IMG/VR virus record: IMGVR_UViG_3300032257_000069 | Location: 1 to 35,316 of that record | DNA: 35,316 nucleotides | Strand: one strand, 5' to 3' | DNA from: a virus | Taxonomy: Duplodnaviria > Caudoviricetes | In this document: positions 128 to 15,638 of the stretch, piece after piece | Position numbering within the stretch: position 1 is the first letter of the stretch | Layout: every line of letters begins with the position of its first letter | Program-made: the position numbers and the translations under genes | Notes under the pieces: generated by a model | Told to the model about the DNA's origin: nothing | The model's input: the letters and a program-made list of their open reading frames with translations, nothing else | Database searches by the model: none

Positions 128-3100
128 CACTGCGATCAATCCACCAGGTACGGTGCGCGCCCTGTTCCAAGATGGTCTGAAAAAACGCTGGTATCATCTG
201 ATAAAAACCAAGCGCAAGGCATGGCACGGCACCCCGAAAAAGACGGCGTTCACACAGTTCGATACGCAATATATCGGTACAGGCGAAGGCGTTCAGGCGT
301 TTGGCTGGGGTCTGTACTATGCTGATGGTCGTCACACATCTGAATATTATCGAAAGGGTGATCAACGCATTGAAGATCGTGACTATAAAGATCATGAACT
401 TCAATGGACGTTCCTGAACGACAGAAACCGCACCCGCAACTGGAAAGATCGCGCCTTCATCCTGAAAACAATCGTTGGCAATGCTGTCCGCGAAGAAACG
501 CATCGAAATCTGACATCGCAATCACTGCGCAAAGCGGCATCAATCCTGATCAGTGATCGCACAGGCAAGCCAGCGACAGAGGCCGCTATCGATGCCCTGA
601 TCAAGCGCGAAACCAACACAGTGATCCGCGCAGACCATGCGATGCCGCGATCCAGCACGAAAGAAGATCAATATGCTGTATTGCGGCGGCTGGCCCATGA
701 AGCGCGCGATGCCCTGATCCACGAAAGAAAAACAAACGATCTGCGCCGCAACCGGATGCGCGCGGCCAACAACGCCCTGCGCGATGCCCTGACGGTGGGC
801 GATCCTGCTGTGGTTCGCCGCGCGATGCGCCGGGTGATCAGGATCGACGGGCAAGAAAACGCTGCGCTGTTTTCGGCGCTCTATGTGCATCTGCCGACAA
901 AGGCCGAAAAGGGCCGTCTGTATCGCGTGGACCTGCAGAATGGTCCGTGGCTGGTCTGGGATGATCGCGTTGACAGTTATTCGATGGCCGCTGTCAAAGA
1001 GGCCATGAAGAAAGCTGGGCGGCTGGCGACGGACAACCAGCGCCAAGCATGGGATTGGCTCGAACGCCAGTCTGGCGGTGCCAATGGCAGCGCCCTGTAT
1101 CACACACTGCAGATGATCAATGGATCAGATCGCGCTGCATCACTGTTCTTGGCGGGCATGGGCTATCGCGGGATAAAGTTCGCAGATGGCAACACGCGGG
1201 ATCGCAAACTTCGCCGCACTTGGAACTATGTGGTGTTCTCCGGTGAAGATGTCACGATCCGCGAAGTTCACCAGCAGCGCCGGGGATCGCTCACAATCCC
1301 GGTTGAAGGCGTCCTGTCTGCCAACAGCGTTGTGATGCGACTGGGCAAGGCGGCTGATAAATCAACCGTGATCCATGAGTTCGGCCACATCTTTCTGGAA
1401 CTGGAACGCGAACTGTCCAAGGAAAGCCCTGCGGTCGCGCAGCGCTATGCGCAGACAGCCGCATATCTGGGTTTCGATCCTGCCGGGACTATTCCAACAG
1501 ACGCGCACGAGGCGTTCGCGGAAAGTTTCGAAACGTGGACCGCGACGGGAAAAGCGCCAACACCAGGATTGGCCAAAGCGTTCCAAGCCTTCGCCAACTG
1601 GATGCGCGAAGTCTATCAGTCGCTGCGCAAAATGACGCGCCTGACACCCGAACTGCAGGCGACATTCGAAAGCATGTTTGGGGCGCAAAATGCGGCCGCA
1701 GAAGAAAAGGCCGGCACTGGCGTTTTCCCGTCATCATCTGGTGATCGCGGATCACGAAACCGCGATGTCGTGCAGCAGAAGCCGATCCTGAAAGACGAAC
1801 GGGTTTCACGCATACGCGACATCGAACGGCGGCTGGCCAAACTGTTTGGTGTCACCGAGCGCGAACGCCGCATGACATCGAAACGCTATCTGGGTGTTTA
1901 CTATCCGAAAACAGGCGTCATTCGCCGCAATAAGGGCGTGATCGAAGAACTGGAAACACTGGCGCATGAAATCGGCCACGCATGGCAGTTCAGGCACGAT
2001 GCCGCCTATCAGAACTGGGTGGGTGCAGATGGCGCGCTGGTCAAAACATGGGCCTATCCCGGCGCTCGCAAAGGCAGCGAAGAAATCGAGGGTTTCGCAG
2101 AGTTTTTCCGCTGGTTCATGACGAACCCGAACTATGCGCTGGGCGAAAGCCGGGAAAAGTTCGCACAGCTTGAACGCGCGCTGGAAGCCACGATGGGCAA
2201 GAACATCATGGCGGAAGTCGAAGCGATCCGCGCTGAATATGAACTATGGCTGACAGCGCCAGATTACGATGTCGCCAGTACGCGCGTCGTGAAAACGCTG
2301 CGCAACCCTATCGAACAGATCAGCGAAGATGTCCGCAGATCAGGCGCTGTTGGCGTCGTGTCCCAGATGGCCAATGATACCTATCGCGTGATCATCGATC
2401 AGCAGAACCCGCTGGGGCAGCTTACAGACGCATTGCAGCGCGCCATCGAACAGAACACGAAGGAACAGACGGGTGTGAACAAGCCCGCTGAAATCCGGCC
2501 ATCTGAAAACCCCTACATCTTGTCACGGCTGGCACTTGATAGCGGCGCGGCTGGCCAGATGGATATTGTTCACGGCGTTTCTGAATATCGCGGCACAGAC
2601 GGCACTGGTCCGTCACTGGCTGATGCGGTCGAAGTCGCGCTGGGCAAGAACATCATGCAAAGCTGGAACGATGCCGATCTGCAGGACTTCGGTGTTTATC
2701 TTGTCAGTCGCCGGATGGAGGAAGAATGGCAGCGCTTCAAAGATGGCAAAATCCCGAACCGGCCTGATCAGCTTTCACTGCCCGCGCATGAAAAGATCAT
2801 CGCTGATCTGGAACAGTCTGAACGCGGTGCGCGATACCGCGAAGCCGCGCAAATGATCTATGAGTGGAACAACAACCTGCTGAAAAAATCCTATGATGCG
2901 GGTCTGATCACGAAAGACACATATCAGTATCTGCTGGCCGAACGCACCGCCTACGTCCCAGTGATGCGCGAACGGTCTGATGAAAACGTGCTGCAGACTG
3001 TGAACGGCGCAGCCACGCCATCGCGGCGCAACAAAATGAAACTGATCACCCGCTTTCAGGGAAGCAATCGCGCGATCATCAATCCCCTCGAAAGCATGAT

Positions 3101-5426
3101 GGCCCGCGCCTATCATGTGAATGCAATCATTGCCCGCAATGACGCGATCAATGCCGCGTGGCGGCTGGCCACGCGCGCCGGAAAGCGCGGCGGTGCCTTC
3201 ATCGAACGGGTGCCACCCAAGACGCTGACAGCCGACACAGTGCCGTTCGAAAAGTTCAAGGAAGGTTTCAAGTCAGAGAACGGCATCGATCTGGATCATC
3301 TGTTCAACGATGATGTGAACATCGAGGACTTGAACGAACTGAATGCGCTGCTGTTCAAATGGGTGGAAAGCCCTGAAGGCAATGAGCCGATCCTGTATGC
3401 ATGGCGCAATGGCGAGCGCCACATGCTGCGCCTGCCTGATGCAGAGTTCGGCAAAACCGTGTTCGAGGCGTTCGCCGCCATCGGCACGGACCAAAGCAAC
3501 GCCATCGAAAACCTTCTGTCTTTCCCCACAGCCGTCCAGCGTTTGAGCATCACAACAGAATGGGCATTCCTGATGGCGAACTTTGTGCGCGATCAGTTCA
3601 CAAGCTGGATATTGACAGAGGACGCCACGCCAATCGTCACCAGTGTTGGCGGCATGGTGTCCGAGATACGACAGGACGAATGGTCAAAGCGCTACAATCG
3701 CGCTGGGGGGCTGATGGGCGGTGCCAATGTCGGTGCGCTGCGCAAAGGCCAGATTGCCCGCGACATGAAGTCAATGCGCAAGAAGGGCTGGTTCATCCGG
3801 CGCTTCAAAAGCTGGACCGGCGTGATGCAACTGTCTGAACTATCCGAGACTGGCACGCGGCTGGGTCTGTTCAGAAACGCCTTCAAGCGCCTGAAGCGCG
3901 ACGGCATGTCAGACCATGACGCGATGGTGCAGGCCGCATTCCAAGCCCGCGATTATATCGATTTTGGCCGCTATGGCTCGCGCATGAACTTCGCGCGTCG
4001 TCTGATCACATTCCTGAATGCGATGCTGCAGGGTACTGACAAGGCGGTGCGGGTGGTGTTCGCCAACAAGGCAGTTCGCCGCACGCTGCGCGAAGCCATG
4101 ACTGGCGAGAAAACGCAATACACAGTCGAGGAAGCACGCCAACGGCGGGTGGGCATCAAGGCATTTATGAAACTGATGTCCACCGGGTTCATCGGATACC
4201 TGGTGCATCTGCTTTACTCGGATGAACCGGAATATCAGGAGTTCAGCGCATACCTTCGCGCGACACACTGGATGGTGCGGATCAATGGCCAGTGGGTCAG
4301 CGTTCCCAAGCCGTTTGAACTGGGCATGATTTCCAACATTGTCGAACGCGCAATGGAAGCGCGCGACTTTGATGATCCGACTGCTTGGAACCGGCTTCTG
4401 ACAGATGCGCGCTACACGATGCTGCCACCTAATCAGGCACCGATCATCACAGTGCCAATGGAGTTGTGGGCTAATCGCCGCTCGTTCGACGATGCCCCGA
4501 TAGTTTCCCCGTCACTGGAAAGACTGCCGCCCCAGATGCAGCACGATGCATTCACGTCGCGCCTCGGTCTGGGTGTGTCCTACGCCCTGTCACCGATCAG
4601 CCGCATGTTCGGCGGCGAAGGTGTGTCACCTGAAAAAGTCGATCACGCGCTGGCAGGGTTTGGCGGATCATGGATGCGCAATGCGCAGGGCTTGTCCAAC
4701 ATCATCTGGGGCGATGCATCAGCCAACACGCTGGCTGACACACCAGTTCTGCGCAGGTTCTTCCGCGACAGTTCGCGCGGATCGCGGGTGCGCGGCGATT
4801 TCTATGATTATGCAAGCGAACTGCGTGGCCGGTTTGAAAACGCGCGGGCGGGTTATCGTGAACAGGTTCGCCGCAATGACATCGAACGGGCTGTGCAACA
4901 TCTTCAACAGTTAGATCCAATAGAACGCGATTATGCGCTGCTGTTCACAAATGGAGAAACCGCAGACCGGCGATTGCACCCGCTGGATCGATCCCGGCGC
5001 GCGATGGCCGCGAACCGGGGGCTGCAGGACCAGCTTCGTCGCAGGGCGGTGCGCAGGCTTCGCACAGAAACCCTGATCGCCAGCGATCTGACACAGCGCC
5101 AGCGCGGCGATCTGATTGGCCTGTTGAACAACCTGTCCAGCTATGAAGCGCGCTGGGCGCTGACAACAATCGGCGTGGGTGGGTACAATGACAGCCAACC
5201 GCAATATGACCGCACGGCGATCCTGCAGCAGATCAGGGATATTTCGCCCGCAATCTATACCGAACTGGCGCGGCGCTATCGCATTAACCGGGTTACGAGC
5301 GAAGAAGCATCAAATACCTGGTGGATGCGCCGACAACCATTGATCCAGTCCGACATCGAAGAACGGATTTATCAAATAGAGGCACAACGCACGCGGCAAA
5401 ACATGATACCCCGCGAACCAAACTAG
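3..5426 (+). CDS. C-terminal part of giant polyvalent virion/ejection protein (continues from 30440 across the junction): ART-like domain, two HExxH metallopeptidase-like domains, LPD38-like C-terminus
   Basis: The frame is open upstream of the GTG at 42. ART-PolyVal-like pattern AWHGT..F..FD..IGTGEG.QAFGWGLYYA...LYRVDL...GYRGIKF...NYVVF. HEFGH at 1374 followed by HEAFAESFE..GKAP; HEIGH at 1965 followed by EGFAEF. LPD38-like DFGRYG..FLNA.LQG, PKPFELG, ELWANR.SF, SPEKVDH. Confidence 0.85.
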   Translation, partial: AQENARDRSQHPFVRRSFTGTPQRTDGAMVRFADGSYAVIDNTAINPPGTVRALFQDGLKKRWYHLIKTKRKAWHGTPKKTAFTQFDTQYIGTGEGVQAFGWGLYYADGRHTSEYYRKGDQRIEDRDYKDHELQWTFLNDRNRTRNWKDRAFILKTIVGNAVREETHRNLTSQSLRKAASILISDRTGKPATEAAIDALIKRETNTVIRADHAMPRSSTKEDQYAVLRRLAHEARDALIHERKTNDLRRNRMRAANNALRDALTVGDPAVVRRAMRRVIRIDGQENAALFSALYVHLPTKAEKGRLYRVDLQNGPWLVWDDRVDSYSMAAVKEAMKKAGRLATDNQRQAWDWLERQSGGANGSALYHTLQMINGSDRAASLFLAGMGYRGIKFADGNTRDRKLRRTWNYVVFSGEDVTIREVHQQRRGSLTIPVEGVLSANSVVMRLGKAADKSTVIHEFGHIFLELERELSKESPAVAQRYAQTAAYLGFDPAGTIPTDAHEAFAESFETWTATGKAPTPGLAKAFQAFANWMREVYQSLRKMTRLTPELQATFESMFGAQNAAAEEKAGTGVFPSSSGDRGSRNRDVVQQKPILKDERVSRIRDIERRLAKLFGVTERERRMTSKRYLGVYYPKTGVIRRNKGVIEELETLAHEIGHAWQFRHDAAYQNWVGADGALVKTWAYPGARKGSEEIEGFAEFFRWFMTNPNYALGESREKFAQLERALEATMGKNIMAEVEAIRAEYELWLTAPDYDVASTRVVKTLRNPIEQISEDVRRSGAVGVVSQMANDTYRVIIDQQNPLGQLTDALQRAIEQNTKEQTGVNKPAEIRPSENPYILSRLALDSGAAGQMDIVHGVSEYRGTDGTGPSLADAVEVALGKNIMQSWNDADLQDFGVYLVSRRMEEEWQRFKDGKIPNRPDQLSLPAHEKIIADLEQSERGARYREAAQMIYEWNNNLLKKSYDAGLITKDTYQYLLAERTAYVPVMRERSDENVLQTVNGAATPSRRNKMKLITRFQGSNRAIINPLESMMARAYHVNAIIARNDAINAAWRLATRAGKRGGAFIERVPPKTLTADTVPFEKFKEGFKSENGIDLDHLFNDDVNIEDLNELNALLFKWVESPEGNEPILYAWRNGERHMLRLPDAEFGKTVFEAFAAIGTDQSNAIENLLSFPTAVQRLSITTEWAFLMANFVRDQFTSWILTEDATPIVTSVGGMVSEIRQDEWSKRYNRAGGLMGGANVGALRKGQIARDMKSMRKKGWFIRRFKSWTGVMQLSELSETGTRLGLFRNAFKRLKRDGMSDHDAMVQAAFQARDYIDFGRYGSRMNFARRLITFLNAMLQGTDKAVRVVFANKAVRRTLREAMTGEKTQYTVEEARQRRVGIKAFMKLMSTGFIGYLVHLLYSDEPEYQEFSAYLRATHWMVRINGQWVSVPKPFELGMISNIVERAMEARDFDDPTAWNRLLTDARYTMLPPNQAPIITVPMELWANRRSFDDAPIVSPSLERLPPQMQHDAFTSRLGLGVSYALSPISRMFGGEGVSPEKVDHALAGFGGSWMRNAQGLSNIIWGDASANTLADTPVLRRFFRDSSRGSRVRGDFYDYASELRGRFENARAGYREQVRRNDIERAVQHLQQLDPIERDYALLFTNGETADRRLHPLDRSRRAMAANRGLQDQLRRRAVRRLRTETLIASDLTQRQRGDLIGLLNNLSSYEARWALTTIGVGGYNDSQPQYDRTAILQQIRDISPAIYTELARRYRINRVTSEEASNTWWMRRQPLIQSDIEERIYQIEAQRTRQNMIPREPN
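1687..1719 (+). repeat. 33-bp exact direct repeat, copy 1 (AAAATGCGGCCGCAGAAGAAAAGGCCGGCACTG)
   Basis: Identical to 13509-13541. Confidence 0.9.
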
Positions 5427-5436
5427 GAGAACGAAC

Positions 5437-7842
5437 ATGGCGTGGAGTGGTGGAACATTCACACTGAACCAAGACTTCCCAGCAGACCGCGATGCGGGTG
5501 CGCCTGATCACTTCATCGATGCCGACAAGGTGGATGATGAACTTCAGAACATCAAATCAGGTCTGGAAGCCTGCCTGCACCGGGGCGGCAACAATGGCAT
5601 GACCGGCGCGCTTGATCTGGACGGGAATGATCTGGTTCTTGACGCAGACGGCGATAGCATCCTGCACGCCACCGCAGATGATCAGATCGATCTGGACATA
5701 GGCGGCACGAACCTGTTGCGCGCGACAGCCGCCCTGCTGGCTCTGACAGGGGCCATGACGATTTCTGGCGCCCTATCTGTGTCTGGTGCGCTGACCGCTG
5801 GGGCCAATCTTGATCTGAACGGTTCTGATCTGGTGATCGATGCAGATGGCGATAGCATCCTGCACGCCACCGCAGATGATCAGATCGATCTGGACGTGGG
5901 CGGTTCGAATGTCTGGCGAACGACAACAACCGGCTTCGCAGTCACCGGCACGATCAGCGCAACTGGGAACATTTCCACATCAGGCGGCACGATTGGCGGT
6001 CTGACATCGGCTGAACTGGGCGAACTGGCCAACATCGACAGCGTAACAATCACGAACGCGCAATGGGGCTATGTCGGTGCCACGTCCAGTTTCGGCGGGT
6101 CTGTCATGGCCGCGTCTGAAATCACAGAAGCGATGCTGTCCAGCGCCCTGCAGACGAAAGTGAACAATGCAGCCGCGTCCAAACTGGACGCGACCAGCGC
6201 GCCAGATGCCAATGACGATGACAGCAATACTGGCGGCAACGGCACGTTTGCAGAAGGATCGCTGTGGATCGATCAAACTGGCAATGAAGCCTATCGGTGT
6301 GTGGATGCATCGACCGGCGCGGCGATCTGGATCAACACGACGCTGACGACTGACGAACTGGGAACCATTGCCACCCAGAACGCCAATGCAGTGACGATCA
6401 CAGGCGGATCGATCAGCGGCATCACTGATCTGGCTGTTGCAGATGGCGGCACCGGGGCCGGGACCGCAGCGGGTGCCAGAACGAACTTGGGCCTTGGCAC
6501 TATCGCCACACAGGCCGCAAGTTCGGTCGCTATTACAGGCGGCGCGATTGACGGCACAGCGATTGGCGGTTCCACCCCAGCAGCGGGCGCGTTTACCACG
6601 CTGGCGGCTTCGGGTGATGTGGCGTTCGATACGACTGGTTTTTTCTTCGACCAGTCAGCGGGGCGTGTTGGTATTGGGACTGCTGCACCAGCTGGACCGC
6701 TCCACACTGTCTTGGGAACACATGCTGTCGGCACTTGGGACGGCAATGCCGCCGTTTTTGGTGTGGCTGGGGCGTCTGGCTCTGCCTTTGGTATCGCACA
6801 TGACGCGACAAATGGTTCGCGCCTGATCTCCTTGGAACCCGGTACATCTTGGCGCAAAATGACGTTTATCGCGTCCGATTTTGGCTTCTCCATCAACAAT
6901 GCCACGGATGCAGTTACTATCACCCCCGGTGGTGATGTCGGCATTGGCAACACTTCCCCCGCCGCCCCGCTGGAAGTTACCGGCGCGATCCTGTCGGGTC
7001 AGGCAACCGTCGACCATGAAGGCGCTTTACAGGTTGGGATCGGCTCTGGTGCTGCGGCTTCATCCACATCGGGATCAACGGACAGCACACAGGCCGCGGT
7101 TTTTTACGCCACCAATGTCGGCGCGGCTGGCTATGGTGTTCATGTCGGCGTGGGCAATGGCGGCGTCGGCTGGATACAAAACCGAGCCGTTGACGATTTT
7201 TCCGCTCTTGCCAACCTCATTTTGCAACCGAACGGCGGCGATCTGGATATTGGCGGCAGCGGTCTATATTGGGACGCTAGTGCATCTAGTGTCGGTATTG
7301 GCACCGCTAGCCCCTCGCGCACCTTTCACGTTGCCGCCAGTGGTGGCCCTGTCGCGCTTTTCGAGGGTGATGGTTCAAACATCGCAGACATTACCATTCA
7401 GTCCGACCTAACAGGCGGCAACTATGGCTCTGCGATTAACTTCACAGCGGTTGCAGGGGCGACACAATCTGCCCGGATTATATCAATCGCGTCGGGCGGA
7501 CTTCGCATGGGGTCAGGGTCAAACGATCATCTGACTATTACGGCGGCGGGCAATGTCGGTGTTGGCGTCACTAATCCCGGCAACCTTCTCACCATTGGGG
7601 GCGTTGCCACGCCTGTCATCCAGATTGCACCAAGCGGGGCGGCAGGAAGCGGGATGCAGATTTATGGGTCCGGCGCTACAATGTATATCAACAACACTGA
7701 AAACGGGCCGCTTGCTTTTTATGTCAATGGCTCGTCCCGGCTGGTTATCGCAGCAAATGGTGAGATTACCGCAAACCTGCCCACATCAGCCGGAACAGCC
7801 GGAACACTTTGGAATGACAGCGGGACCGTCAAAGTCGCATAA
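5437..7842 (+). CDS. Tail fibre / receptor-binding protein (801 aa)
   Basis: AGGAG RBS. G/A/T/S-rich, with repeated GxVGIGT.xP motifs, an ADGGTGA..AAGARTNLGLG motif and LGTIATQ...ITGG repeats. Follows the ejection genes. Confidence 0.85.
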   Translation: MAWSGGTFTLNQDFPADRDAGAPDHFIDADKVDDELQNIKSGLEACLHRGGNNGMTGALDLDGNDLVLDADGDSILHATADDQIDLDIGGTNLLRATAALLALTGAMTISGALSVSGALTAGANLDLNGSDLVIDADGDSILHATADDQIDLDVGGSNVWRTTTTGFAVTGTISATGNISTSGGTIGGLTSAELGELANIDSVTITNAQWGYVGATSSFGGSVMAASEITEAMLSSALQTKVNNAAASKLDATSAPDANDDDSNTGGNGTFAEGSLWIDQTGNEAYRCVDASTGAAIWINTTLTTDELGTIATQNANAVTITGGSISGITDLAVADGGTGAGTAAGARTNLGLGTIATQAASSVAITGGAIDGTAIGGSTPAAGAFTTLAASGDVAFDTTGFFFDQSAGRVGIGTAAPAGPLHTVLGTHAVGTWDGNAAVFGVAGASGSAFGIAHDATNGSRLISLEPGTSWRKMTFIASDFGFSINNATDAVTITPGGDVGIGNTSPAAPLEVTGAILSGQATVDHEGALQVGIGSGAAASSTSGSTDSTQAAVFYATNVGAAGYGVHVGVGNGGVGWIQNRAVDDFSALANLILQPNGGDLDIGGSGLYWDASASSVGIGTASPSRTFHVAASGGPVALFEGDGSNIADITIQSDLTGGNYGSAINFTAVAGATQSARIISIASGGLRMGSGSNDHLTITAAGNVGVGVTNPGNLLTIGGVATPVIQIAPSGAAGSGMQIYGSGATMYINNTENGPLAFYVNGSSRLVIAANGEITANLPTSAGTAGTLWNDSGTVKVA
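5650..5895 (+). repeat. Internal duplication in tail fibre: identical 48-bp blocks at 5650-5697 and 5848-5895
   Basis: Peptide LDL.G.DLV.DADGDSILHATADDQIDLD.GG occurs twice, 66 aa apart. Confidence 0.9.
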
Positions 7843-7856
7843 CAAGGAGGCCAATC

Positions 7857-8174
7857 ATGGCTATTGACTACACATGGACTTTCAACCCTCTTGAGTTTGA
7901 GGACAACGGCGACCTGCCGAAAAGCGTGAGCGTTGTTCACTGGCAATGCTCCGGCACTGACGGGACGCACAGCGCGCGATCTATCGGCACTGAAGCGATG
8001 TCTGATCCTGATCCAGACAGTTTCACCGCGTGGGATGACCTCACACCAGAAATCGTCAAAGGCTGGCTTCCTCCCGCAGTGATCAGCGCAGCAGAAGCCA
8101 ATATCGCGGCCAGTATCGCGCGCATGGTTGAAGAAGCTGCGGCCAACAAAGGCACTGGGGTGCCTTGGGATTAA
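7857..8174 (+). CDS. Small tail-fibre-associated protein (probable assembly chaperone)
   Basis: AAGGAGG RBS. Acidic 105-aa protein (V..VHW...GTDG...F..W.DLT...V.GW...G.PW) of a type commonly found directly after phage tail fibres. Confidence 0.6.
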   Translation: MAIDYTWTFNPLEFEDNGDLPKSVSVVHWQCSGTDGTHSARSIGTEAMSDPDPDSFTAWDDLTPEIVKGWLPPAVISAAEANIAASIARMVEEAAANKGTGVPWD

Positions 8175-8176
8175 AG

Positions 8177-8204
8177 CAGGGGTGTTCATTCATGCACCCG
8201 CCTG
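8177..8204 (+). terminator. Possible weak hairpin after the tail genes
   Basis: CAGG-GGTG...CACC-CG-CCTG imperfect stem; the T-run is displaced. Confidence 0.3.
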
Positions 8205-8390
8205 ATCGATTTTGTGGAAAGTGTTTATAACCCAGCGCGGTTTTGAACACTTTCTGCACAGGCTCTAACCGCATCAGCAAAAGGAATGGCTCTATTTGTC
8301 CAAGTTTTCCACGGCACCACAACAATCTCAAAACTTAAAAAAAGATTATTGGGACTGTGGACATGTGGATAAGTAGAACCGGAAAAGGGA
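8205..8390. other. Putative oriC-like replication origin: DnaA-box cluster in an AT-rich intergenic spacer
   Basis: Perfect TTATCCACA on the - strand at 8364-8372, overlapped by ATGTCCACA (8356-8364). Single-mismatch boxes against TTWTNCACA at 8213-8221(-), 8222-8230(-), 8241-8249(+), 8252-8260(+) and 8305-8313(+). AT-rich core at about 8320-8350. Confidence 0.75.
8335..8349 (+). promoter_or_regulatory. CtrA-like binding site (TTAA-N7-TTAT)
   Basis: One mismatch to the alphaproteobacterial CtrA consensus TTAA-N7-TTAA. It lies in an AT-rich tract, so chance is possible. Confidence 0.4.
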
Positions 8391-8398
8391 AAAACATC

Positions 8399-8863
8399 AT
8401 GGCAGTTCGCACGACAGAAACGCACATCGAAGCAGATCACTACACCGACATCGATGCATCCGACCGGGTTCTGTGGCCGTGGAAGAACTTCCCCCCTCAT
8501 GAAATGCAATGCAGGCACTGCGGCGCGGTAAAAGTTCGCAAGTCAGCGATGGATCGTCTGACGCTGCTGCGATCCCATGCTGGCGATCTGCCAATGCATG
8601 TGAACAGCGCCTATCGATGCCCTGCCTATAACCAACAGATCAGTTCGACCGGACCAACAGGCCCGCACACACTGGGCGGATCATTTGATCTGCAGGTGCA
8701 TCGCGGTCGCGCGTGGACCGTCATGCGTGCGGCCATGAATGTCGGCTTTTCTGGGATTGGCGTGGCGCAGAAAGGTGCCACCAGGTCACGCTTCCTGCAC
8801 GTCGATGATGAAGAACATGATCCAGACAATCGGATGATCCGCCCGACAGTGTGGAGTTACTAG
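8399..8863 (+). CDS. Endolysin, peptidase M15A family (Zn-dependent)
   Basis: NF...EM.C.HCG, V.SAYRC..YN, GPHT.G.SFDL, GIGV, FLHVD motifs. ATG at 8399 follows a purine-rich RBS and is preferred over GTG 8357. Confidence 0.85.
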   Translation: MAVRTTETHIEADHYTDIDASDRVLWPWKNFPPHEMQCRHCGAVKVRKSAMDRLTLLRSHAGDLPMHVNSAYRCPAYNQQISSTGPTGPHTLGGSFDLQVHRGRAWTVMRAAMNVGFSGIGVAQKGATRSRFLHVDDEEHDPDNRMIRPTVWSY

Positions 8864-8866
8864 CGC

Positions 8867-9124
8867 ATGGCCGATTTGATCAGCATCGTCGCCAGTCTGG
8901 AAGGGTTCGGCATTGCCGGTCTGCTTCTGGTCGCGTGCGCGCTGCTGATCAGGGCATGGCACAATGAGCGCGCGGAAACCCAGCGCGAGCGAGAACGCAC
9001 GATTGAACTGTATCAGGTGATGGCCGACGACGCGCGCACGAACGGGGCGCAGATGGCCGAAATGGCGCAGCAGTTAAACCGTGCGATCGATTACATCTCA
9101 ACAGCGCCAAGGGGGGCAAAATGA
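8867..9124 (+). CDS. Holin-like membrane protein
   Basis: N-terminal transmembrane segment and charged helical tail; directly after the endolysin. Confidence 0.5.
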   Translation: MADLISIVASLEGFGIAGLLLVACALLIRAWHNERAETQRERERTIELYQVMADDARTNGAQMAEMAQQLNRAIDYISTAPRGAK

Positions 9125-9300
9125 GCGGTCGCCAAAGAGTGCAGGCCACAGCCAATGAACCAAGTGAGCCAACCGCGAAAACGGCGCTGGAACGAATGCG
9201 CTACGAACGGTCTGTATTGGCGGCAAACACTGCGCGCCTGTCAGAAGAACTGGATAAACTGATACACGGATCGAAAGACAATGTTCCTGCTAAGTCTTGA
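9121..9300 (+). CDS. Hypothetical protein, 59 aa (not in ORF track)
   Basis: ATGA overlap with the upstream stop, AAGGGGG RBS, reads MSGRQRVQAT...NVPAKS*, and fills the gap. Confidence 0.6.
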   Translation: MSGRQRVQATANEPSEPTAKTALERMRYERSVLAANTARLSEELDKLIHGSKDNVPAKS

Positions 9301-9721
9301 AGCACTATCGATGGCGCTGGGCGTCGTTGCGATAGGTTTTTCAATCTGGGTGATCCGGCACTTTCTTGGAACAGTCGGCTGGCTTCGCTGGACTGAACAC
9401 CGGCACTGGCAACCGCGCGACTGGATCGCGGTGGGCATCGTTACGGGTTTTGCGGGCGAAGTTCTGGATGGCGTTTACTGGTCAACGGCATGGGCGGCGC
9501 ATTATTTTGATCTTCCAGTTTCTTCATCGCTGATGAACTGGGGCGTTGTGGCCAATATTCCATTCCGGCACGTTCTGGTGATCGCGGCGGCATACTGTCA
9601 CATTCGCGCGGCTGGTTCGCTGTCTGGCGCGAAGTTCAGCGAACGCATCAACCAGATCGCACTGGTGGCTTTGAGTTTTGGCGGCTTGCTCACGGCTTTG
9701 TTGGTCTTTGCCGCGCTATAG
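9281..9721 (+). CDS. Multi-pass membrane protein in lysis cassette
   Basis: About four hydrophobic segments; overlaps the preceding ORF. Confidence 0.6.
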   Translation: MFLLSLEALSMALGVVAIGFSIWVIRHFLGTVGWLRWTEHRHWQPRDWIAVGIVTGFAGEVLDGVYWSTAWAAHYFDLPVSSSLMNWGVVANIPFRHVLVIAAAYCHIRAAGSLSGAKFSERINQIALVALSFGGLLTALLVFAAL

Positions 9722-9735
9722 GAAGGAAGCACACC

Positions 9736-10311
9736 ATGATTTCATCGATTGCTTTAACACTGGCCAGCCGGTTCGCACCCGGTATCGTGCGCCGCCTCGC
9801 TGGGGATGGCGCAGGCGACATCGCAGAACGCTTGCTGGGCATCGCTCGAACTGTCACCGGGGCGGAAAGCCCTGAACAGGCTGTTGAACGCCTGATGGCC
9901 AATGACGAAATGCGCCATGAGTTTGAACTTCAGGCGGCATCGCTAGATGTCGAACTGGAACAAGCCTATTTGGCAGATCGCCAGAATGCGCGATCCCGCG
10001 AACTTGAAATGGCCAGACTGGGCAAGGGCGATCTGATGATGGACATCATCGGCGTCGTCACGGTGCTGGGCTTCATTGCAACGGTGCTGGCGGCGTTCTT
10101 TGTCCCGGACATGACATCATCCCAGCAAAATCTGATCTTCGCACTGGCGGGCATCCTAGGCGCTGGGTTCACCGGCATCATCGGATACTATTACGGTTCA
10201 TCACGCGGTTCCGCGATGAAGAATGATCTGCTGCGCAGTCAGGCACCGCCTGCCCCAGCGCGGCGCGAACGACAGGACGATGGCGATGCCCGTTCACGAC
10301 AGCCCGCGTAA
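9736..10311 (+). CDS. Holin-like protein (3TM/GTA-holin-like type)
   Basis: N-terminal amphipathic region, coiled segment ending ADRQNARSRE, two TM helices and IIGYYYGSS.GS..K motif. Confidence 0.7.
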   Translation: MISSIALTLASRFAPGIVRRLAGDGAGDIAERLLGIARTVTGAESPEQAVERLMANDEMRHEFELQAASLDVELEQAYLADRQNARSRELEMARLGKGDLMMDIIGVVTVLGFIATVLAAFFVPDMTSSQQNLIFALAGILGAGFTGIIGYYYGSSRGSAMKNDLLRSQAPPAPARRERQDDGDARSRQPA

Positions 10312-10531
10312 AACGCCAATGACACCGCAGCAGAAGGTGATCGCTGCTGCTGCGGTCGCCAGCGCGCTGGGTGTTCTGGCCAGTGCCGTGAACTTTGGAT
10401 ACATCGCGCTGCATGACCGCGAACATCGCGTGATGACACTGAACGAACTGTGCGGTGCAGAACTGTCTGGCGATCCTGAAAAGGATGATCCATTGATTAC
10501 GGCGCGCAATGCGATGGGGGGGTGTCGATAG
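10286..10531 (+). CDS. Small membrane-anchored hypothetical protein (possible lysis accessory)
   Basis: One TM segment and two Cys. Start is uncertain (10280, 10286 or 10319). Confidence 0.5.
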   Translation: MPVHDSPRKTPMTPQQKVIAAAAVASALGVLASAVNFGYIALHDREHRVMTLNELCGAELSGDPEKDDPLITARNAMGGCR

Positions 10532-10569
10532 AATAAACCCGCCGCGCTGGTGTTAGGGCGCGACGGGTT
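10532..10569 (-). terminator. Intrinsic terminator oriented for a minus-strand transcript
   Basis: On the - strand: AACCCGTCGCGC-loop-GCGCGGCGGGTT followed by TATT. Confidence 0.6.
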
Positions 10570-10620
10570 CAGGGGGGGACCGTGAGGGTCGGATGTTGCT
10601 GGCTGGGGAGACAACAACCC
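10532..10620 (-). ncRNA. Predicted ~88-nt leftward small RNA with anti-Shine-Dalgarno motifs (AbcR/alpha-r15-like)
   Basis: 5' hairpin GUUGUUG-UCUCCCCAGC-CAGCAAC, then GGUCCCCCCCUGAA, then a terminator hairpin. Both stems have G-U pairs on the - strand that would be A-C mismatches on +. Upstream promoter-like TTGACT-17-CAGAAA. Confidence 0.6.
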
Positions 10621-10623
10621 GAT

Positions 10624-10653
10624 TTTTCTGGGCCGGTTTTTCAGAAAAGTCAA
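10624..10653 (-). promoter_or_regulatory. Leftward sigma70-type promoter overlapped by inverted repeat TTTTCTG-N11-CAGAAAA (candidate operator)
   Basis: -35 TTGACT (10653-10648), 17-nt spacer, weak -10 CAGAAA (10630-10625). Inverted repeat spans 10624-10648. Confidence 0.5.
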
Positions 10654-10659
10654 ATGTGG

Positions 10660-10689
10660 TTGCACCCTCTGGGCGAAAGGCGCTAGAAC
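10660..10689 (+). promoter_or_regulatory. Rightward early promoter, probably giving a leaderless mRNA
   Basis: TTGCAC-18-TAGAAC. GCTAGAAC fits the Caulobacter-type -10 GCTANAWC. The ATG lies 4 nt downstream with no room for an SD. Confidence 0.55.
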
Positions 10690-10693
10690 TGTC

Positions 10694-10939
10694 ATGGGCG
10701 AAACAGTGAAAACATTCAGGCAGTGGCTTTCAGAAAACGACATATCCCAGAACAAGGCATCGAAGCGCTTAGGCGTTTCGCAGCAGTGGGTTTGCATGTT
10801 GTGCGATCCTGCCGATCCATCCCGTCCCAGTGTCCAGTTGCTGATGGAAATCGAGGAATGGACAGACGGCGCTGTTTCGCTCGCCAGTTGGCGAGACAAA
10901 GGAGCATTGCCGCATGAAAGTCTGGAAACTGATCCGTGA
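10694..10939 (+). CDS. Cro-like helix-turn-helix regulator
   Basis: WL...ISQ..ASKRLGVSQQWV......RPS..L...IE..T.GAV...W, typical of Cro/YdaS-like proteins; first gene of the rightward operon. Confidence 0.8.
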   Translation: MGETVKTFRQWLSENDISQNKASKRLGVSQQWVCMLCDPADPSRPSVQLLMEIEEWTDGAVSLASWRDKGALPHESLETDP

Positions 10940-11216
10940 CTGGTGGGCGAAAACGCATTCACCAGGTCAAAACATACTGCACGAGCGACAGCACAAAGCA
11001 GCCCGCCGCGCACAGATTGGCGACGATCTGAAAAACCTGTCTGCGCAGTTGCGCAAAAGCCGACAGTTAGAACACGACTATGCCCACGGACGCGCTGCGC
11101 GCCGGGGCAATCAGTCATGGGAGAATGCGACTACAGCAGTCGCACAGGCAGACCGTTTCCGGTCTGCGCAACATCTTGCGAAACGCAAGAAACAACCGAA
11201 AGGGAAACCCGCATGA
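10914..11216 (+). CDS. Basic hypothetical protein
   Basis: AAGGAG RBS before the ATG; coupled to both neighbours. Confidence 0.65.
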   Translation: MKVWKLIRDWWAKTHSPGQNILHERQHKAARRAQIGDDLKNLSAQLRKSRQLEHDYAHGRAARRGNQSWENATTAVAQADRFRSAQHLAKRKKQPKGKPA

Positions 11217-11602
11217 AAATGAACTTTGCAAGGAAACTGTTCACAGAAGATCGTGAACCAATGCGCGAGAGGGTGAAGCCAGATGGATCACCAGACCCGT
11301 CTAGCGACGTTCTCACGCTGCGCAAGGCGGTGGGCATCATTGGGCGGCGCTCGCACCCAGATGCCGATAAGACCGACACACAGGACAAGTCAGATTTACG
11401 GTTCCATCTGGTTCTGAAAATCAACCCGCACCCGGTCGGCGTCGACGTGTTTGATGTCACCGTGGAAGAATGCGCGGCCATCAAGGAGCGCGCCCATTAT
11501 TTCTTCGACGCATGGGTGTCTGGGCAGGTTCGTCAAATGCTGGATGATCCAGAATGGACACTGGACCCAGCGCCAAAGAAAGCCACCACGTCCGAAAAAT
11601 AG
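11213..11602 (+). CDS. Phage hypothetical protein (129 aa)
   Basis: ATGA coupling at 11213. LTL..RF.L.LKI....D.T.EE.A.IK...V.G....ML pattern resembles a common small phage protein family. Confidence 0.65.
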   Translation: MKMNFARKLFTEDREPMRERVKPDGSPDPSSDVLTLRKAVGIIGRRSHPDADKTDTQDKSDLRFHLVLKINPHPVGVDVFDVTVEECAAIKERAHYFFDAWVSGQVRQMLDDPEWTLDPAPKKATTSEK

Positions 11603-11605
11603 AAC

Positions 11606-11631
11606 CGGGCGAAACACACGGCCATTCAGGA
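11606..11631. repeat. Inverted-repeat arm in the leader/RBS of ORF 11642, complementary to 15513-15540
   Basis: CGGGCGAAACACACGGCCATTCAGGA versus TCCTGAATGGCCGTGTGTGTTTCGCCCG: 26 matches plus a 2-nt insertion. Confidence 0.9.
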
Positions 11632-11641
11632 GGGCCAATCT

Positions 11642-12052
11642 ATGAGCAATATTAAAACCGCCGAAAAAGTCGCGGCTGACATTCAGTCGATGATCACACT
11701 GCTGAAAGACAGCAGCGAAATCGAAGGACTGCCAACCTTGTCAGACGACGATCTGAACCGGCTGGCCACGGACCCGATCACAGCCGCCCTGCAGTTCAAG
11801 GCGTCCAGATTGAAGTTCATCAAGGAGATAATCGACCAGCAGGCGGCACATGGAACATCTGTTGTCATCATGGGCTTTATCCCAGCAGTCGAAGGCGAAC
11901 ATCACGCGACGACATGCATCACGCCGGGATTGGCGTCAGAAGTGCTGGCGCGCGGTCTGTTTGAACTTGTCCACGGCAATGCATCACTTAGCGCGGAGTT
12001 CAGCGCGCTGGCGATTGAAGCTGCCACGAATATGATGGGGAAGGGCAAGTGA
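11642..12052 (+). CDS. Hypothetical protein (136 aa)
   Basis: Strong AGGAGG RBS; no recognisable motif. Confidence 0.75.
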   Translation: MSNIKTAEKVAADIQSMITLLKDSSEIEGLPTLSDDDLNRLATDPITAALQFKASRLKFIKEIIDQQAAHGTSVVIMGFIPAVEGEHHATTCITPGLASEVLARGLFELVHGNASLSAEFSALAIEAATNMMGKGK

Positions 12053-12477
12053 TGGGACAGCCAAGCTACAAGCGCGTTGAAAAACCAGAACCAGACCCGC
12101 GCCAGATCGAAATGTTCGAGGGACCGGCAACGGTCGCAGAAACCCCGGCATGGTGCAGGTCGCAGGCGTTCAAGGACGCACTGAAAAAGATGCCCGCCAC
12201 CCAGCGCGACATCTGGGAAGCCATCGCCAGATCAGAAGCCAGCTTCCCCGGTCGCGGCATGACCTGTGAAGAACTGGTCTGGGCGGTCTGTGAAATCCGC
12301 CAGTTGCCGGAAGGCACAGGGCCGGGGCTTCTCACGATCCGCCCGAATGTCACCCGCATGAAGCAGGCCGGTCTGATCGAACCCGTCAAACGCCGCGGTA
12401 AAACAGAAAGCGGGAAAGCCTGCACGGCCTACGCGCTTGTTGACCCGGCGAAGAAGAAGGAAGCACGCCATGACTAA
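12049..12477 (+). CDS. Winged-helix DNA-binding protein
   Basis: GMT.EEL...TIRP.VT.M..AGLI.....KT.SGK....Y pattern. Start is 12049 or 12052. Confidence 0.7.
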   Translation: MMGQPSYKRVEKPEPDPRQIEMFEGPATVAETPAWCRSQAFKDALKKMPATQRDIWEAIARSEASFPGRGMTCEELVWAVCEIRQLPEGTGPGLLTIRPNVTRMKQAGLIEPVKRRGKTESGKACTAYALVDPAKKKEARHD

Positions 12478-12829
12478 ACACCGCCACATGAAAACCTACC
12501 GAGGGCCGGAAGGCGAGGACTTGCGTGTTGCAGAACGCATCAGGATCGCCCGCAATCACGCCGGGGTGTCGCAGGAAAAAATAGGCAGGGCGCTGGGGAT
12601 CAGCTTCCAGCAGGTCCAGAAGTACGAGAGCGGCAAGAACCGGATCACCGTGGGCAAGCTGTCGCGCTGGTCCATCGCGGTTGGCGTTCCATTAACCGTT
12701 CTGCTTGATGGTCTGGGATACCTACCCCAGCGCAAACAGGCGAAACCTGGTGGATTGGAATATGATGATACACAGGCGAACAAGCGTTCACCGGAGACAT
12801 GGGAGGGCTTTATCGATGGCACACGATGA
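12470..12829 (+). CDS. XRE-family HTH transcriptional regulator
   Basis: RIRIAR...GVSQEKIG.ALGISFQQVQKYESG.NRI, the XRE subtype typical of alphaproteobacteria. No S24 peptidase domain. Confidence 0.9.
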   Translation: MTKHRHMKTYRGPEGEDLRVAERIRIARNHAGVSQEKIGRALGISFQQVQKYESGKNRITVGKLSRWSIAVGVPLTVLLDGLGYLPQRKQAKPGGLEYDDTQANKRSPETWEGFIDGTR

Positions 12830-13022
12830 CAAACTGCTGGTGTTCGGGACTTTGGAAACACCGAAAATGCCGAACTTTTTGAGAGCAAAACTGCACGGCG
12901 TCGATGTTTCGATCAATGTGGGAACGCTGACACCGGAACAGGCGGAAGCATTCGCGGCGATCTGGACGGAAGCATTCACGCATCACTGCGCCAAGCTGCG
13001 GGAGGTATTGGGCAATGGCTAA
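12816..13022 (+). CDS. Hypothetical protein (68 aa)
   Basis: GGGAGG RBS before ATG 12816; coupled to neighbours. Confidence 0.65.
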   Translation: MAHDDKLLVFGTLETPKMPNFLRAKLHGVDVSINVGTLTPEQAEAFAAIWTEAFTHHCAKLREVLGNG

Positions 13023-13305
13023 GGCATCACAAGTGTTCGAAACCGCCACCGCGCACCCAGATTGGAACGCGGACCAGATCGCAGAAGCGCTGGATTGTTC
13101 GCCATCCTATGTGCGCACGACATTCTATCGCGCTGGTCTGCCTGTCCCAAACAAACAGGATCGCGCAGCGTTCAAGCCAGTCACCCGCTGCGCACTGGCG
13201 CTGGCATCCATCGCAGAAAAACAGGACGTGAACAGTCCCGCATTTCATAAGGCTTATGCTGAACTGGAATGCGCTATCGAAAAGGAACAGATACATGCCC
13301 CATAA
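13015..13305 (+). CDS. Small HTH protein
   Basis: HPDWNADQIAEALDCSPSYVRTT..R.GL helix-turn-helix pattern; GGAGG RBS. Confidence 0.65.
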   Translation: MAKASQVFETATAHPDWNADQIAEALDCSPSYVRTTFYRAGLPVPNKQDRAAFKPVTRCALALASIAEKQDVNSPAFHKAYAELECAIEKEQIHAP

Positions 13306-13591
13306 AAAAAAGACCCCGCTTTTTCTGGTGATGCAGCGCGCGGCGCTGGTTATCCTTGTTCTCGGTGCCGTCCAGCTTGTCGCCACGGTTAGTTTGATCG
13401 CTGGCGCCCTGCTTGGCACCGCAGTGCTGACCTTCATCGTCGGCATCCTGCTGGAAGATAAACACCGCGCTGATGTCAGTCGCGCGTTCGATCACAACCC
13501 GTTCACTGAAAATGCGGCCGCAGAAGAAAAGGCCGGCACTGCGCAGCGCGCACCGCGACCAAAGCGCGCGACGGAAGGTTCAGACGAATGA
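13295..13591 (+). CDS. Two-TM membrane protein
   Basis: AAGGA RBS; long hydrophobic hairpin. Confidence 0.65.
   Translation: MPHKKKTPLFLVMQRAALVILVLGAVQLVATVSLIAGALLGTAVLTFIVGILLEDKHRADVSRAFDHNPFTENAAAEEKAGTAQRAPRPKRATEGSDE
13509..13541 (+). repeat. 33-bp exact direct repeat, copy 2
   Basis: Identical to 1687-1719. Confidence 0.9.
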
Positions 13592-13914
13592 TCCGGCGCA
13601 CAGGGATCATGGCCGCGATGCTGGCGGCTGGTGGGGTGCTGGGGCTTGGCCCCGGCATCGCGTCGGTCGGCGGTGACACCCAGACGACGCGCACCGCATC
13701 TGCAGAACAGCAGCAAGGCAAACAGAACAAACAACGGCCTGCGGTTCGAATACAGCGCCAGCAGGTGCGCTATAACCCAGACGGTTTTCGTCGTCGCCAT
13801 GATGGCATTCATCGCAGTTCAGGCTGGTGGAACAAACGGCGCTGGAAACTATCAAAGCAGACCGGCAAAAAGTCCGGTCGCGGAAACCGCAAAACAGGAG
13901 GTCGCGCACGATGA
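13588..13914 (+). CDS. Highly basic hypothetical protein with hydrophobic N-terminus
   Basis: ATGA coupling at both ends; R/K/G-rich C-terminus. Confidence 0.6.
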   Translation: MIRRTGIMAAMLAAGGVLGLGPGIASVGGDTQTTRTASAEQQQGKQNKQRPAVRIQRQQVRYNPDGFRRRHDGIHRSSGWWNKRRWKLSKQTGKKSGRGNRKTGGRAR

Positions 13915-14102
13915 CACATTCAACAGGTAGTGACGGGTGTGGCGGCTGCGCCATTGTCGTTTTCTTTGTCGCATTCGCGGCATGGCTCACTCATGTTGTG
14001 ACCTGTTTCCAAACAGGCGCATGGGGTTTTCTGATTGGCGGTGCGCTGTTCTTCCCGGTCGCCATTGTTCACGGCGTTCTGATTTGGCTGGGGGTGGCGT
14101 GA
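13911..14102 (+). CDS. Small membrane protein (63 aa)
   Basis: AGGAGG RBS; AWLTHV..C....W.FLI.GALFFP..IVHG..IW hydrophobic pattern. Confidence 0.7.
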   Translation: MTHSTGSDGCGGCAIVVFFVAFAAWLTHVVTCFQTGAWGFLIGGALFFPVAIVHGVLIWLGVA

Positions 14103-14908
14103 TGACTAAGGCTCCCGATAGCCTCCGCATGGCGATCAAAACGGCGCTTCTGGAAGAAGTCGCCTTCGAGCATTCCGACGAGGACGGCACACACCTGACG
14201 GGATTGGACGAGGCGACATGGCGCATCCTTGCTCTTATCCAACAGCCAGCCGTGAAGGTTAAGGCGCTGGAGTGGAAAGAGCCGAGCCAGCTTACGAACG
14301 GATGTTGGGTCGCAGACACGCCGTTCACCGGATACAGTATTTGCCACGAAGATTGTCGGTTTCATGTCATTTGCGAAGGCTGGAATATCAGCGGTGACGA
14401 TCAAGACGTAGCACTTGATTGCCCCACCCTAAAAGCCGCCAAAGCCGCAGCACAGGCTCATTACGACAAAGCAATCCGTGAAGCACTGGAGCCCATCCCT
14501 GACGGGTGGGGTGTGTTCCCGCTTGAACCAACAGAGGCGATGCTCGAAGCTTCATGGCGCGATACGCAAGAGGTATCGGCCAGCGAACGAATGGCCGCAG
14601 AACTTGGCGATGCTCGGGCGGCTCATCGCCACAAAATGCGCCGACGATACCGAGCCATGCTCTCCGCCGCTCCTGTCCCTGACGGTATGGTGATGATTGA
14701 GGCGCTTCGCCCGCGTTCAGGCGGCAACATAATCCACGCGCGACGTGCAAACTGCACCATATCTGCTGGCCGTACTTTGTGCAGTCGCTACTCTGTCGGC
14801 TGGCCCCCGTTGACGGAGAAGTTTGACCCTCTGAACGCCATGTCTTGCGTGCAGTGTGTCAACGGATACCGCAACATGATCGCCAACGGCCTGCAGGTGA
14901 CAACATGA
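14102..14908 (+). CDS. Mosaic accessory protein (268 aa)
   Basis: Contains common phage mini-modules VKVK.LEW...TL.AAKAAAQA.Y and VP.EPTEAML.A...YRAML.AAP-like, plus a C-terminal H..C..CxxC cluster. Confidence 0.65.
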   Translation: MTKAPDSLRMAIKTALLEEVAFEHSDEDGTHLTGLDEATWRILALIQQPAVKVKALEWKEPSQLTNGCWVADTPFTGYSICHEDCRFHVICEGWNISGDDQDVALDCPTLKAAKAAAQAHYDKAIREALEPIPDGWGVFPLEPTEAMLEASWRDTQEVSASERMAAELGDARAAHRHKMRRRYRAMLSAAPVPDGMVMIEALRPRSGGNIIHARRANCTISAGRTLCSRYSVGWPPLTEKFDPLNAMSCVQCVNGYRNMIANGLQVTT

Positions 14909-15126
14909 CTGAACAGCGTGAACGCCACCGCCTGAAGGCCAGCTATGCGGGCCAGCCGTTGGCTGTTCTGCGCGCTGAATATCGAAACTGGAAGGAAGTG
15001 CGGGATCGCCACGTTCGGGCATCCCGCGATACACTGGCGGCTATGGCGCAGATGCGCCTGACCGTGATCACCGAGGAAGTCGAAATCCAGAAAGGGAACA
15101 AACACAATGACCGACAGACCAGATAG
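14905..15126 (+). CDS. Hypothetical protein (73 aa)
   Basis: ATGA coupling; AGGTG RBS. Confidence 0.6.
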   Translation: MTEQRERHRLKASYAGQPLAVLRAEYRNWKEVRDRHVRASRDTLAAMAQMRLTVITEEVEIQKGNKHNDRQTR

Positions 15127-15478
15127 CACTGAAGCGCTGGCGATCCAGACCATGCGCGACACAGCTGCATTGGCGTTTCGCTACAAACAGGAACTGGACG
15201 CCATCAAGAAACCCGCTTCATCCCGGCGCGTGGAACAGGCAGAACTGGCGACACATGAAGCAGAAGAAGCGCTGCAGGCGCTGGCCACACGACTGCGCGA
15301 AGCCATTGGCCAGACCATGATGGGCATGACACTGCGCAACAGATTGAACGAAATCATTGATGACCTGGTGCCGCGCAAAGACAGCCTGTCCGACTTCCTA
15401 GCGCGGGAACAGACACCCCTTGGCAACAATGTATTGAACACCGAGGCGCAGTTGCACAGATGCGGGCCTTGTCCCTGA
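15107..15478 (+). CDS. Hypothetical helical protein
   Basis: AAGGGA RBS; coiled-coil-like composition. Confidence 0.6.
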   Translation: MTDRPDSTEALAIQTMRDTAALAFRYKQELDAIKKPASSRRVEQAELATHEAEEALQALATRLREAIGQTMMGMTLRNRLNEIIDDLVPRKDSLSDFLAREQTPLGNNVLNTEAQLHRCGPCP

Positions 15479-15498
15479 TCGCAGGGCGATGATAGACC
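15469..15498 (+). promoter_or_regulatory. Promoter-like element containing palindrome CCCTG-ATCG-CAGGG
   Basis: TTGTCC-18-TAGACC has the same geometry as the 10660 promoter. Palindrome at 15473-15486. Confidence 0.4.
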
Positions 15499-15502
15499 AC
15501 TC

Positions 15503-15593
15503 TCACGGTTGTTCCTGAATGGCCGTGTGTGTTTCGCCCGAAACGCCGCGTCATGCCCTCGCACCCTCCCGGTTGCGGGGGCATTTCGTTTTT
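15503..15593 (+). ncRNA. Predicted ~90-nt antisense small RNA
   Basis: Lies between a promoter-like element and a terminator; complementary to the leaders of ORFs 11642 and 22795. Confidence 0.55.
15553..15593 (+). terminator. Intrinsic terminator ending the early region
   Basis: ATGCCCTCGCACC-CTCCC-GGTTGCGGGGGCAT followed by TTCGTTTTT. Confidence 0.75.
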
Positions 15594-15638
15594 GGATCAA
15601 TCGCGGCATATACTGTCCGCAATCGGGAGAAATAACGA

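Follow-up and report, generated by a model that had tools for sequence, protein, structure and literature searches.

A Cluster of DnaA Boxes Between Tail and Lysis Genes

The window, that is the whole stretch of DNA analysed, is the complete record IMGVR_UViG_3300032257_000069 of an uncultured podophage (35,316 nt), and holds between a DUF7936 gene and an endolysin gene a non-coding spacer of 224 bp (8175-8398) with a GC content of 0.44 as compared with 0.58 genome-wide. The order of elements in this spacer is two leftward DnaA boxes, two rightward boxes, a rightward module of the host type, an AT tract and a strong leftward pair (Table 1), such that two box sets converge on a single AT tract. 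The least stable windows of 30, 50 and 100 bp in the genome begin at 8321, 8330 and 8279, and the tract is predicted to serve as an unwinding element common to both box sets. The left and right tandem pairs together make a 16-bp inverted repeat (8217-8232/8239-8254). The hairpin following the DUF7936 gene is a possible terminator insulating the spacer; its T tail is weak and a terminator scan did not list it. The CtrA-like site differs at one position from the CtrA motif, of which no perfect copy occurs in the genome.

Table 1. Features of the spacer and its flanks, and the winged-helix gene
Feature	Position	Strand	Remarks
DUF7936 gene, left flank, downstream of tail fibre gene	7857-8174	+	PF25590, E 3.9e-21
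Hairpin after DUF7936 gene	8176-8204	+	RNA fold -11.5 kcal/mol, without shuffle control
Two tandem DnaA boxes (8213-8221, 8222-8230), leftward	8213-8230	-	One mismatch each to TTWTNCACA
Two tandem DnaA boxes (8241-8249, 8252-8260), rightward	8241-8260	+	One mismatch each to TTWTNCACA
Weak box 8296-8304 (three mismatches) and box 8305-8313 (one mismatch), head of plus-strand module	8296-8313	+	
Triplet run GCA, CCA, CAA, CAA, TCT, CAA; no central-adenine trio	8314-8331	+	
AT-rich tract	8321-8350	.	AT-richest 30-mer in genome, 25/30 against 21/30 for the runner-up
CtrA-like site, one mismatch, within AT tract	8335-8349	+	One of two such sites genome-wide; may be chance
Four weak NAN trios of minus-strand box pair	8338-8349	+	
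Perfect DnaA box 8364-8372 and overlapping box 8356-8364, facing AT tract from the right	8356-8372	-	
Peptidase M15 endolysin gene, right flank; start 27 bp past perfect box	8399-8863	+	PF08291, E 1e-10; phrog_894
Winged-helix protein, 142 aa	12049-12477	+	phrog_1123 (function unknown); Atlas structure neighbours are winged helices, TM ~0.5

The initial annotation had described here one perfect and five single-mismatch boxes in both orientations, and this count holds for the degenerate consensus TTWTNCACA (six boxes, 8213-8372), whereas against the strict TTATCCACA the same five boxes have 2-3 mismatches each. The cluster also withstands the significance check proposed for it, since at least six boxes arose in one of 20,000 dinucleotide shuffles of the spacer and in none of 200 genome shuffles (best 5), while the exact overlapping box pair was found in none of 20,000 spacer shuffles.

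The ends of the record overlap by 127 bp, fusing both open end frames into a single gene of 3391 aa, and the record therefore assembles as a circle of 35,189 bp, for which CheckV gives a completeness of 71% despite the end repeat. All annotated genes lie on the plus strand and comprise terminases, portal, capsid, tail proteins, a giant polyvalent protein (LPD23, LPD38), a tail fibre, the endolysin and small early genes. The polyvalent protein of 3391 aa (30440-35316 joined to 128-5426) carries LPD23, LPD38 and a metallopeptidase motif as well as a weak match to a virion RNA polymerase PHROG (E 1.6e-4); neither half matches any PDB sequence. Parts of the genome are present in four public runs, three labelled microbial mat and one marine, and no RNA dataset is among the listed runs carrying them. 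Comparison of public contigs and reads over 5000-16500 yielded in one run (X1, the probable source) a contig covering 5866-13538 with zero differences and even depth, and in a run of a second study (X4) a 234-bp contig (depth 2.4) covering 8317-8550, which links 8317-8398, unaltered, to the endolysin gene, both of its two differences lying within that gene.

The host is likely an alphaproteobacterium, as judged from sequence matches: a helix-turn-helix protein encoded at 12470 has matches in 719 plasmid records; the ten genera most frequent among them are all alphaproteobacterial, with Rhizobium, Sinorhizobium, Agrobacterium, Pseudosulfitobacter, Phaeobacter and Azospirillum at the head. GANTC does not occur in the phage genome (64.5 expected); however, the loss is by itself not diagnostic of the host, because AATT and at least 12 6-mer palindromes are likewise wholly avoided (1-35316). 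Such avoidance suggests that restriction pressure acted over a long lytic history. The GC skew of the whole sequence merely tracks the single coding strand. At four-fold sites the best of 71 split points is 8500, where the sign agrees with bidirectional replication, and the contrast is not significant (Fisher p 0.23). Elsewhere, an inverted repeat (11606-11631/15513-15540; 26/28 bp, 18 bp perfect, chance expectation 0.05) flanks the early block 11642-15478. Its left copy overlies the ribosome-binding site of gene 11642, so that the right copy could be an antisense RNA (duplex -58 kcal/mol); alternatively, the two copies could be a pair of recombination sites.

A Host-Type Module and a Facing Box Pair

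The comparison with host origins made use of hemE, which was searched in 121 genomes of one class; 69 upstream regions were taken (29 of 30 loci, excluding G480, plus 40), and 14 were dropped (GC under 0.40 or too short), leaving 55 for training. In all six loci checked the neighbouring frame has a motif of the DUF299 type. Because of this motif, because one locus matches the Azospirillum row in the available part of Table S1 of PMC8287927, and because hemE-duf299 is described in the accessible text of two papers as the chromosome origin site of Caulobacter and Azospirillum (PMC6393856, 10.64898/2026.09.14.751567), we infer the class to be Alphaproteobacteria. A common module, consisting of a box, a triplet run and an AT tract, was found in 45 of the 55 regions about 100-200 bp ahead of hemE (loci L126-L195), and at 176 triplet positions in 44 host origins the leading triplets were CTA (55), CAA (41) and CCA (38).

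The likeness of the phage spacer to these origins was noticed by eye before a profile was built, and both the seed and the training of the resulting 46-position profile were free of phage sequence, drawing on the 55 hemE-adjacent regions only. Its top match in the phage genome is 8299-8344 on the plus strand at 21.6 bits, with the next at 9.5, and this score was attained by none of 5,000 spacer shuffles and none of 200 genome shuffles. On leave-one-out scoring 33 of the 55 host regions lie above the phage value and 22 below it. Likewise, nhmmer with an HMM made from 29 anchored modules gave 8295-8355 as its sole match (E 0.022). L209, an hemE-duf299 origin that was not used in training, aligns with the phage at 29 of the first 36 columns; since it was found by a pattern partly drawn from the phage, it is an illustration rather than a test. 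Minor pattern scans were set aside: one yielded ten loci, all with 0-1 boxes nearby and eight within long frames, and its companion none; another matched 15 of 401 genomes, among them three duf299-linked origins (two already in training) and 12 others, against seven for the reversed pattern.

The phage thus has the box, a triplet run of the CTA/CAA/CCA kind and the AT tract that define the hemE-type module as derived here from the 45 of 55 regions. It departs from these origins in the upstream box layout (about -290, -143, -77 and -34 in hosts versus -91, -82, -63 and -52 in the phage) and in genomic position, its flanks being DUF7936 and the endolysin rather than duf299 and hemE. GANTC, absent from the phage, is present in 41 of the 44 host origins; a box placed opposite, beyond the module, occurs in just 5/44 and a one-mismatch CtrA-like site in 6/44. 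We regard an oriC-type element on the phage, suited to its likely alphaproteobacterial host, as real. In B. subtilis, according to the available text of PMC10721633, DnaA prefers a central adenine in the trio, and G or T at this position lowers origin activity. The triplets of the plus-strand module have no central adenine, as is the case for about half of the host triplets, and the published NAN rule scores alphaproteobacterial origins weakly (3-8 among the Table S1 rows listed in the accessible part). The host profile suggests that alphaproteobacterial origins have a trio variant of their own (CTA/CAA/CCA), and the triplet run of the phage is predicted to form a track for single-strand DnaA binding.

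The initial annotation had placed the unwinding module on the minus strand, with a B. subtilis-type order of box, overlapping box, spacer and trios. Its reading of the letters of 8372-8330 was correct, and the overlapping 9+8 pair does have the geometry of the B. subtilis row in Table S1 of PMC8287927. Its 'AAT-AAT' trios, in contrast, were mis-stranded, since the table, in the part available, reads trios on the strand opposite TTATCCACA. Correctly read, the trios are TAT, TAG, AAA and AAA (3'-5'), separated from the box by a 14-bp spacer, and they score about 5 as compared with 25 for B. subtilis and 7 for E. coli, on weights deduced from the accessible rows of that table. Judged as a basal unwinding system (BUS), the pair has the boxes expected (up to two mismatches, usually in tandem), one being perfect, and four NAN trios at 14 bp where at least three within 16 bp are asked for; draws from the spacer composition give three such trios in 32% and four in 11% of cases. 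GAT-type trios lie beside the box in neither module, and on the hemE-origin profile the minus-strand module scores just 3.8 bits.

The same 14-bp register recurs in a box-rich intergenic stretch (L070, 2780-3020) of a MAG labelled Francisella; the stretch lies away from dnaA, is possibly the oriC of that MAG, and was left out of the host prediction. The exact box pair is found in repeated, often inverted elements near the contig ends of several proteobacterial genomes (L112, L114-L119, L121-L125), two of these elements adjoining IS3-type transposase frames, a non-origin use of the pair.

Replication Genes, Relatives and Similar Modules in Other Phages

In agreement with the claim that no replication genes are recognisable in the genome, an initiator, helicase, primase, polymerase, recombinase and integrase all went undetected in PHROG, Pfam, NCBIfam and six-frame searches. 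The nearest sub-threshold matches were to a single-strand-binding family (E 0.12) and a replication-protein family (E 0.19), and six-frame searches for DnaB_C, the O-like PHROG, AAA_25 and HTH_36 were empty. The sole candidate found for a cryptic phage initiator is the predicted winged-helix protein of Table 1, for which no relative besides itself and no initiator family match was found; single-sequence folds of this protein and of that encoded at 11213 (pLDDT 50 and 39) were too poor for a structure search. An early protein of 268 aa has 160 relatives, and both it and four of these match only families of unknown function.

Close relatives of the phage are lacking among the matches: the best protein matches are 39-50% identical, the closest relative reaches at most 50% identity in the capsid and 40% in the portal protein, the endolysin has zero relatives in viral contigs and only its own record in metagenome contigs, and the spacer gave short chance matches only against plasmids. 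For calibration we used 18 of 64 capsid relatives (26-50% identity); none matches the BUS pattern, and their profile scores do not exceed 12.5. A replication-type family is present in nine of the 18. Coverage in depth extended to 11 of them, comprising six that match one of the four families (DnaB_C, O-like PHROG, AAA_25, HTH_36) and five further ones scanned by PHROG, where three have primase and helicase, one an integrase only and one nothing in 12 proteins. By these counts a total absence of replication genes is uncommon in the group, yet not unique. Since the last of these relatives (G021) has neither a replication gene in the 12 proteins tested nor a module, the absence needs no oriC; its perfect DnaA box sits within a coding region.

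Modules of this kind are found in other phages. The strict B. subtilis-type pattern occurs in IMG/VR at 28 loci (L224-L251) in 12 groups, 11 of which have at least four boxes within 300 bp, and as dnaA was found in none of the 24 searchable records the loci are not simply chromosome origins. These loci have a canonical box pair with CTA trios, and belong to a group of 17 members, mostly phages of 33-35 kb and with G827 among them, and to others including records of 109 and 275 kb. A low-GC phage of 37.5 kb (G825), whose capsid is distantly related, has an array of five perfect boxes that closes with the same box-GCA-CAA-CAA module as here, which on the profile scores 14.0, below the best background value of its own genome (15.5), so that the profile is unreliable in AT-rich genomes. 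Its array and long AT tract (L221, 9950-10230, minus strand) lie upstream of the terminase genes, with two further boxes 4 kb off at about 14370-14420. Together, this phage and the IMG/VR loci make the oriC-type feature a recurrent one among phages. A separate pattern search gave four loci, three of them within coding regions and attributable to chance, and one a real-looking array on an 8.5-kb viral contig (L069, 2009-2138), where two perfect boxes, a box pair and a repeated AT-rich tract lie upstream of a gene.

Four of the six near-complete phages with such modules encode replication-type proteins, namely an O-like/DnaD-like protein in G825, an HTH_36 protein beside the module in G836 (E 1.5e-6, under the cut-off), DnaB and HTH_36 in G827 and DnaB in G844; G831 and G835 match none of the four families, nor do six partial module records. 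An oriC mimic therefore often accompanies phage replication proteins, and this is the main argument against host DnaA as sole initiator. Hence, of the original proposal of a bacterial oriC-like origin initiated by DnaA alone, the origin-like element is supported, albeit through the plus strand at 8299-8344 rather than through the minus-strand module, whereas the sole-initiator part goes further than is shown, given the initiator-like or helicase genes in these four phages.

Proposed Initiation by Host DnaA and Its Relation to Known Origins

The reading that we favour, with a probability of roughly one half, is that the spacer is the replication origin of the phage and is opened by host DnaA with no phage initiator. 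Its support consists of the cluster statistics, the host-like plus-strand module, the facing box pair, the least stable duplex of the genome and the lack of any detectable replication gene. On this scheme the genome would circularise after entry, DnaA-ATP would load on the boxes and extend from the box at 8305 across the triplet run, the strong opposite pair would assist, the tract at 8321-8350 would melt, and host helicase, primase and polymerase III would replicate the circle as a minichromosome. As it has no GANTC and no perfect CtrA site, the origin would be expected to fire outside the cell-cycle control of the host. A wider proposal, which we advance tentatively and at somewhat less than even odds, is that a lytic tailed phage has shed all genes for replication, recombination and integration and replicates as a minichromosome by way of a compact, double-sided mimic of the host oriC that, devoid of GANTC, fires at any stage of the cell cycle.

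The main rival, which on balance we think unlikely, is that host DnaA merely helps to open the spacer, an unrecognised phage protein being needed for opening or for helicase loading. Iteron plasmids work in this manner, with assistance from host DnaA and a required initiator of their own, and the replication-type proteins of G825, G836, G827 and G844 are as this reading would expect. The candidates would be the winged-helix protein, another small early protein (the early genes are mostly without annotation) or a domain within the injected protein of 3391 aa. The 16-bp inverted repeat could then be a dimer site; against this, the repeat exists because the DnaA boxes are mirrored. Iteron-like direct repeats were found nowhere within 7800-8800, and the winged-helix protein is small, 3.7 kb away, and without relatives or an initiator family match.

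Two further readings have much lower probabilities. It is improbable that the boxes act as a sink or decoy, titrating host DnaA so as to stall replication of the chromosome, with the phage itself using a different route; during infection the perfect box and the roughly eight sites of each genome copy would indeed multiply, but a sink needs neither the triplet run nor the melting tract, both of which are present, and no other replication route was detected. The more specific suggestion of a datA-like locus fares poorly, as datA needs an IHF site among its boxes and the genome has no match to the single IHF consensus tried. Equally doubtful is control of transcription as the main function, in which bound DnaA would be a roadblock or repressor ahead of the endolysin and would time lysis. 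The perfect box precedes the endolysin start by 27 bp, and its TTATCCACA lies on the template strand, which is the orientation that terminates transcription, and the exact pair occurs away from origins in the repeated elements of some proteobacterial genomes; this reading, however, leaves the host-type plus-strand module unexplained, and no sigma-70-like promoter was found in the spacer. Such control could nevertheless be an additional function of the element. A chance cluster, or an artefact in which host origin DNA was spliced into the assembly or false circularisation removed a replication module, is very improbable, for although completeness is put at 71% and no close relative is at hand, the shuffle tests on cluster and profile match speak against chance, and the difference-free X1 contig, the X4 junction to the endolysin and the single frame restored by the end overlap speak against faulty assembly.

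If initiation by host DnaA alone were confirmed, it would constitute a new phage replication strategy and explain part of the many phage genomes without a replication module; phage and chromosome would compete for DnaA-ATP, and the origin sequence could become both a determinant of host range and a predictor of the host. The 224 bp would also serve as a substrate for testing an alphaproteobacterial trio code (CTA/CAA/CCA) that is apparently undescribed, and an element of this size can be cloned, which puts the question within reach of direct testing.

Among known systems, P1, F and RK2 use DnaA boxes together with a Rep of their own. Iteron plasmids and plasmid prophages of this type, including the secondary replicons of Azospirillum, share with the phage an extrachromosomal circle with host DnaA boxes, whereas the phage, as compared with iteron and lambda-type replicons, has no detected rep gene or iterons and copies the unwinding module itself. 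In tailed phages that lack a helicase, an initiator, integrase or recombinase is usually still present, according to the available text of PMC4889955. The pelagiphages of the HTVC010P type are, in the accessible part of PMC8477408, small alphaproteobacterial podoviruses without polymerases that are said to rely on host replication, with no origin described there; most of them, however, encode a protein with the DnaA DNA-binding domain, and all an exonuclease, neither of which was detected here. In the literature searched, largely outside subscription journals, we found no phage described as replicating from a host-type oriC and no description of the CTA/CAA/CCA run; the Ori-Finder 'origins' reported for two cultured phages are, in the text available, software predictions (PMC13299392, PMC11512268), the phage of PMC11512268 encoding a primase and a polymerase.

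Two comparisons are with bacterial origins. With the incC BUS of B. subtilis, as far as it is presented in the available parts of PMC8287927 and PMC10721633, the phage shares the 9+8 minus-strand pair, a short spacer, four weak, putative NAN trios and the AT tract, in accordance with the published search rule; it differs in having no GAT trio, a score of about 5 instead of 25, a spacer of 14 instead of 12, its other boxes on the trio side, and a plus-strand module without central adenines. With the hemE-duf299 origins (Caulobacter Cori and Azospirillum oriC, in the accessible text of PMC6393856 and 10.64898/2026.09.14.751567) it shares the succession of box, C(T/A/C)A triplets and AT tract and at least six boxes in both orientations, while the phage element is confined to 224 bp between tail and lysis genes, spaces its upstream boxes otherwise, has a strong opposite pair past the AT tract and lacks GANTC. 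The element resembles an oriC unwinding module, yet by strict criteria it belongs neither to the B. subtilis BUS nor to the hemE origins.
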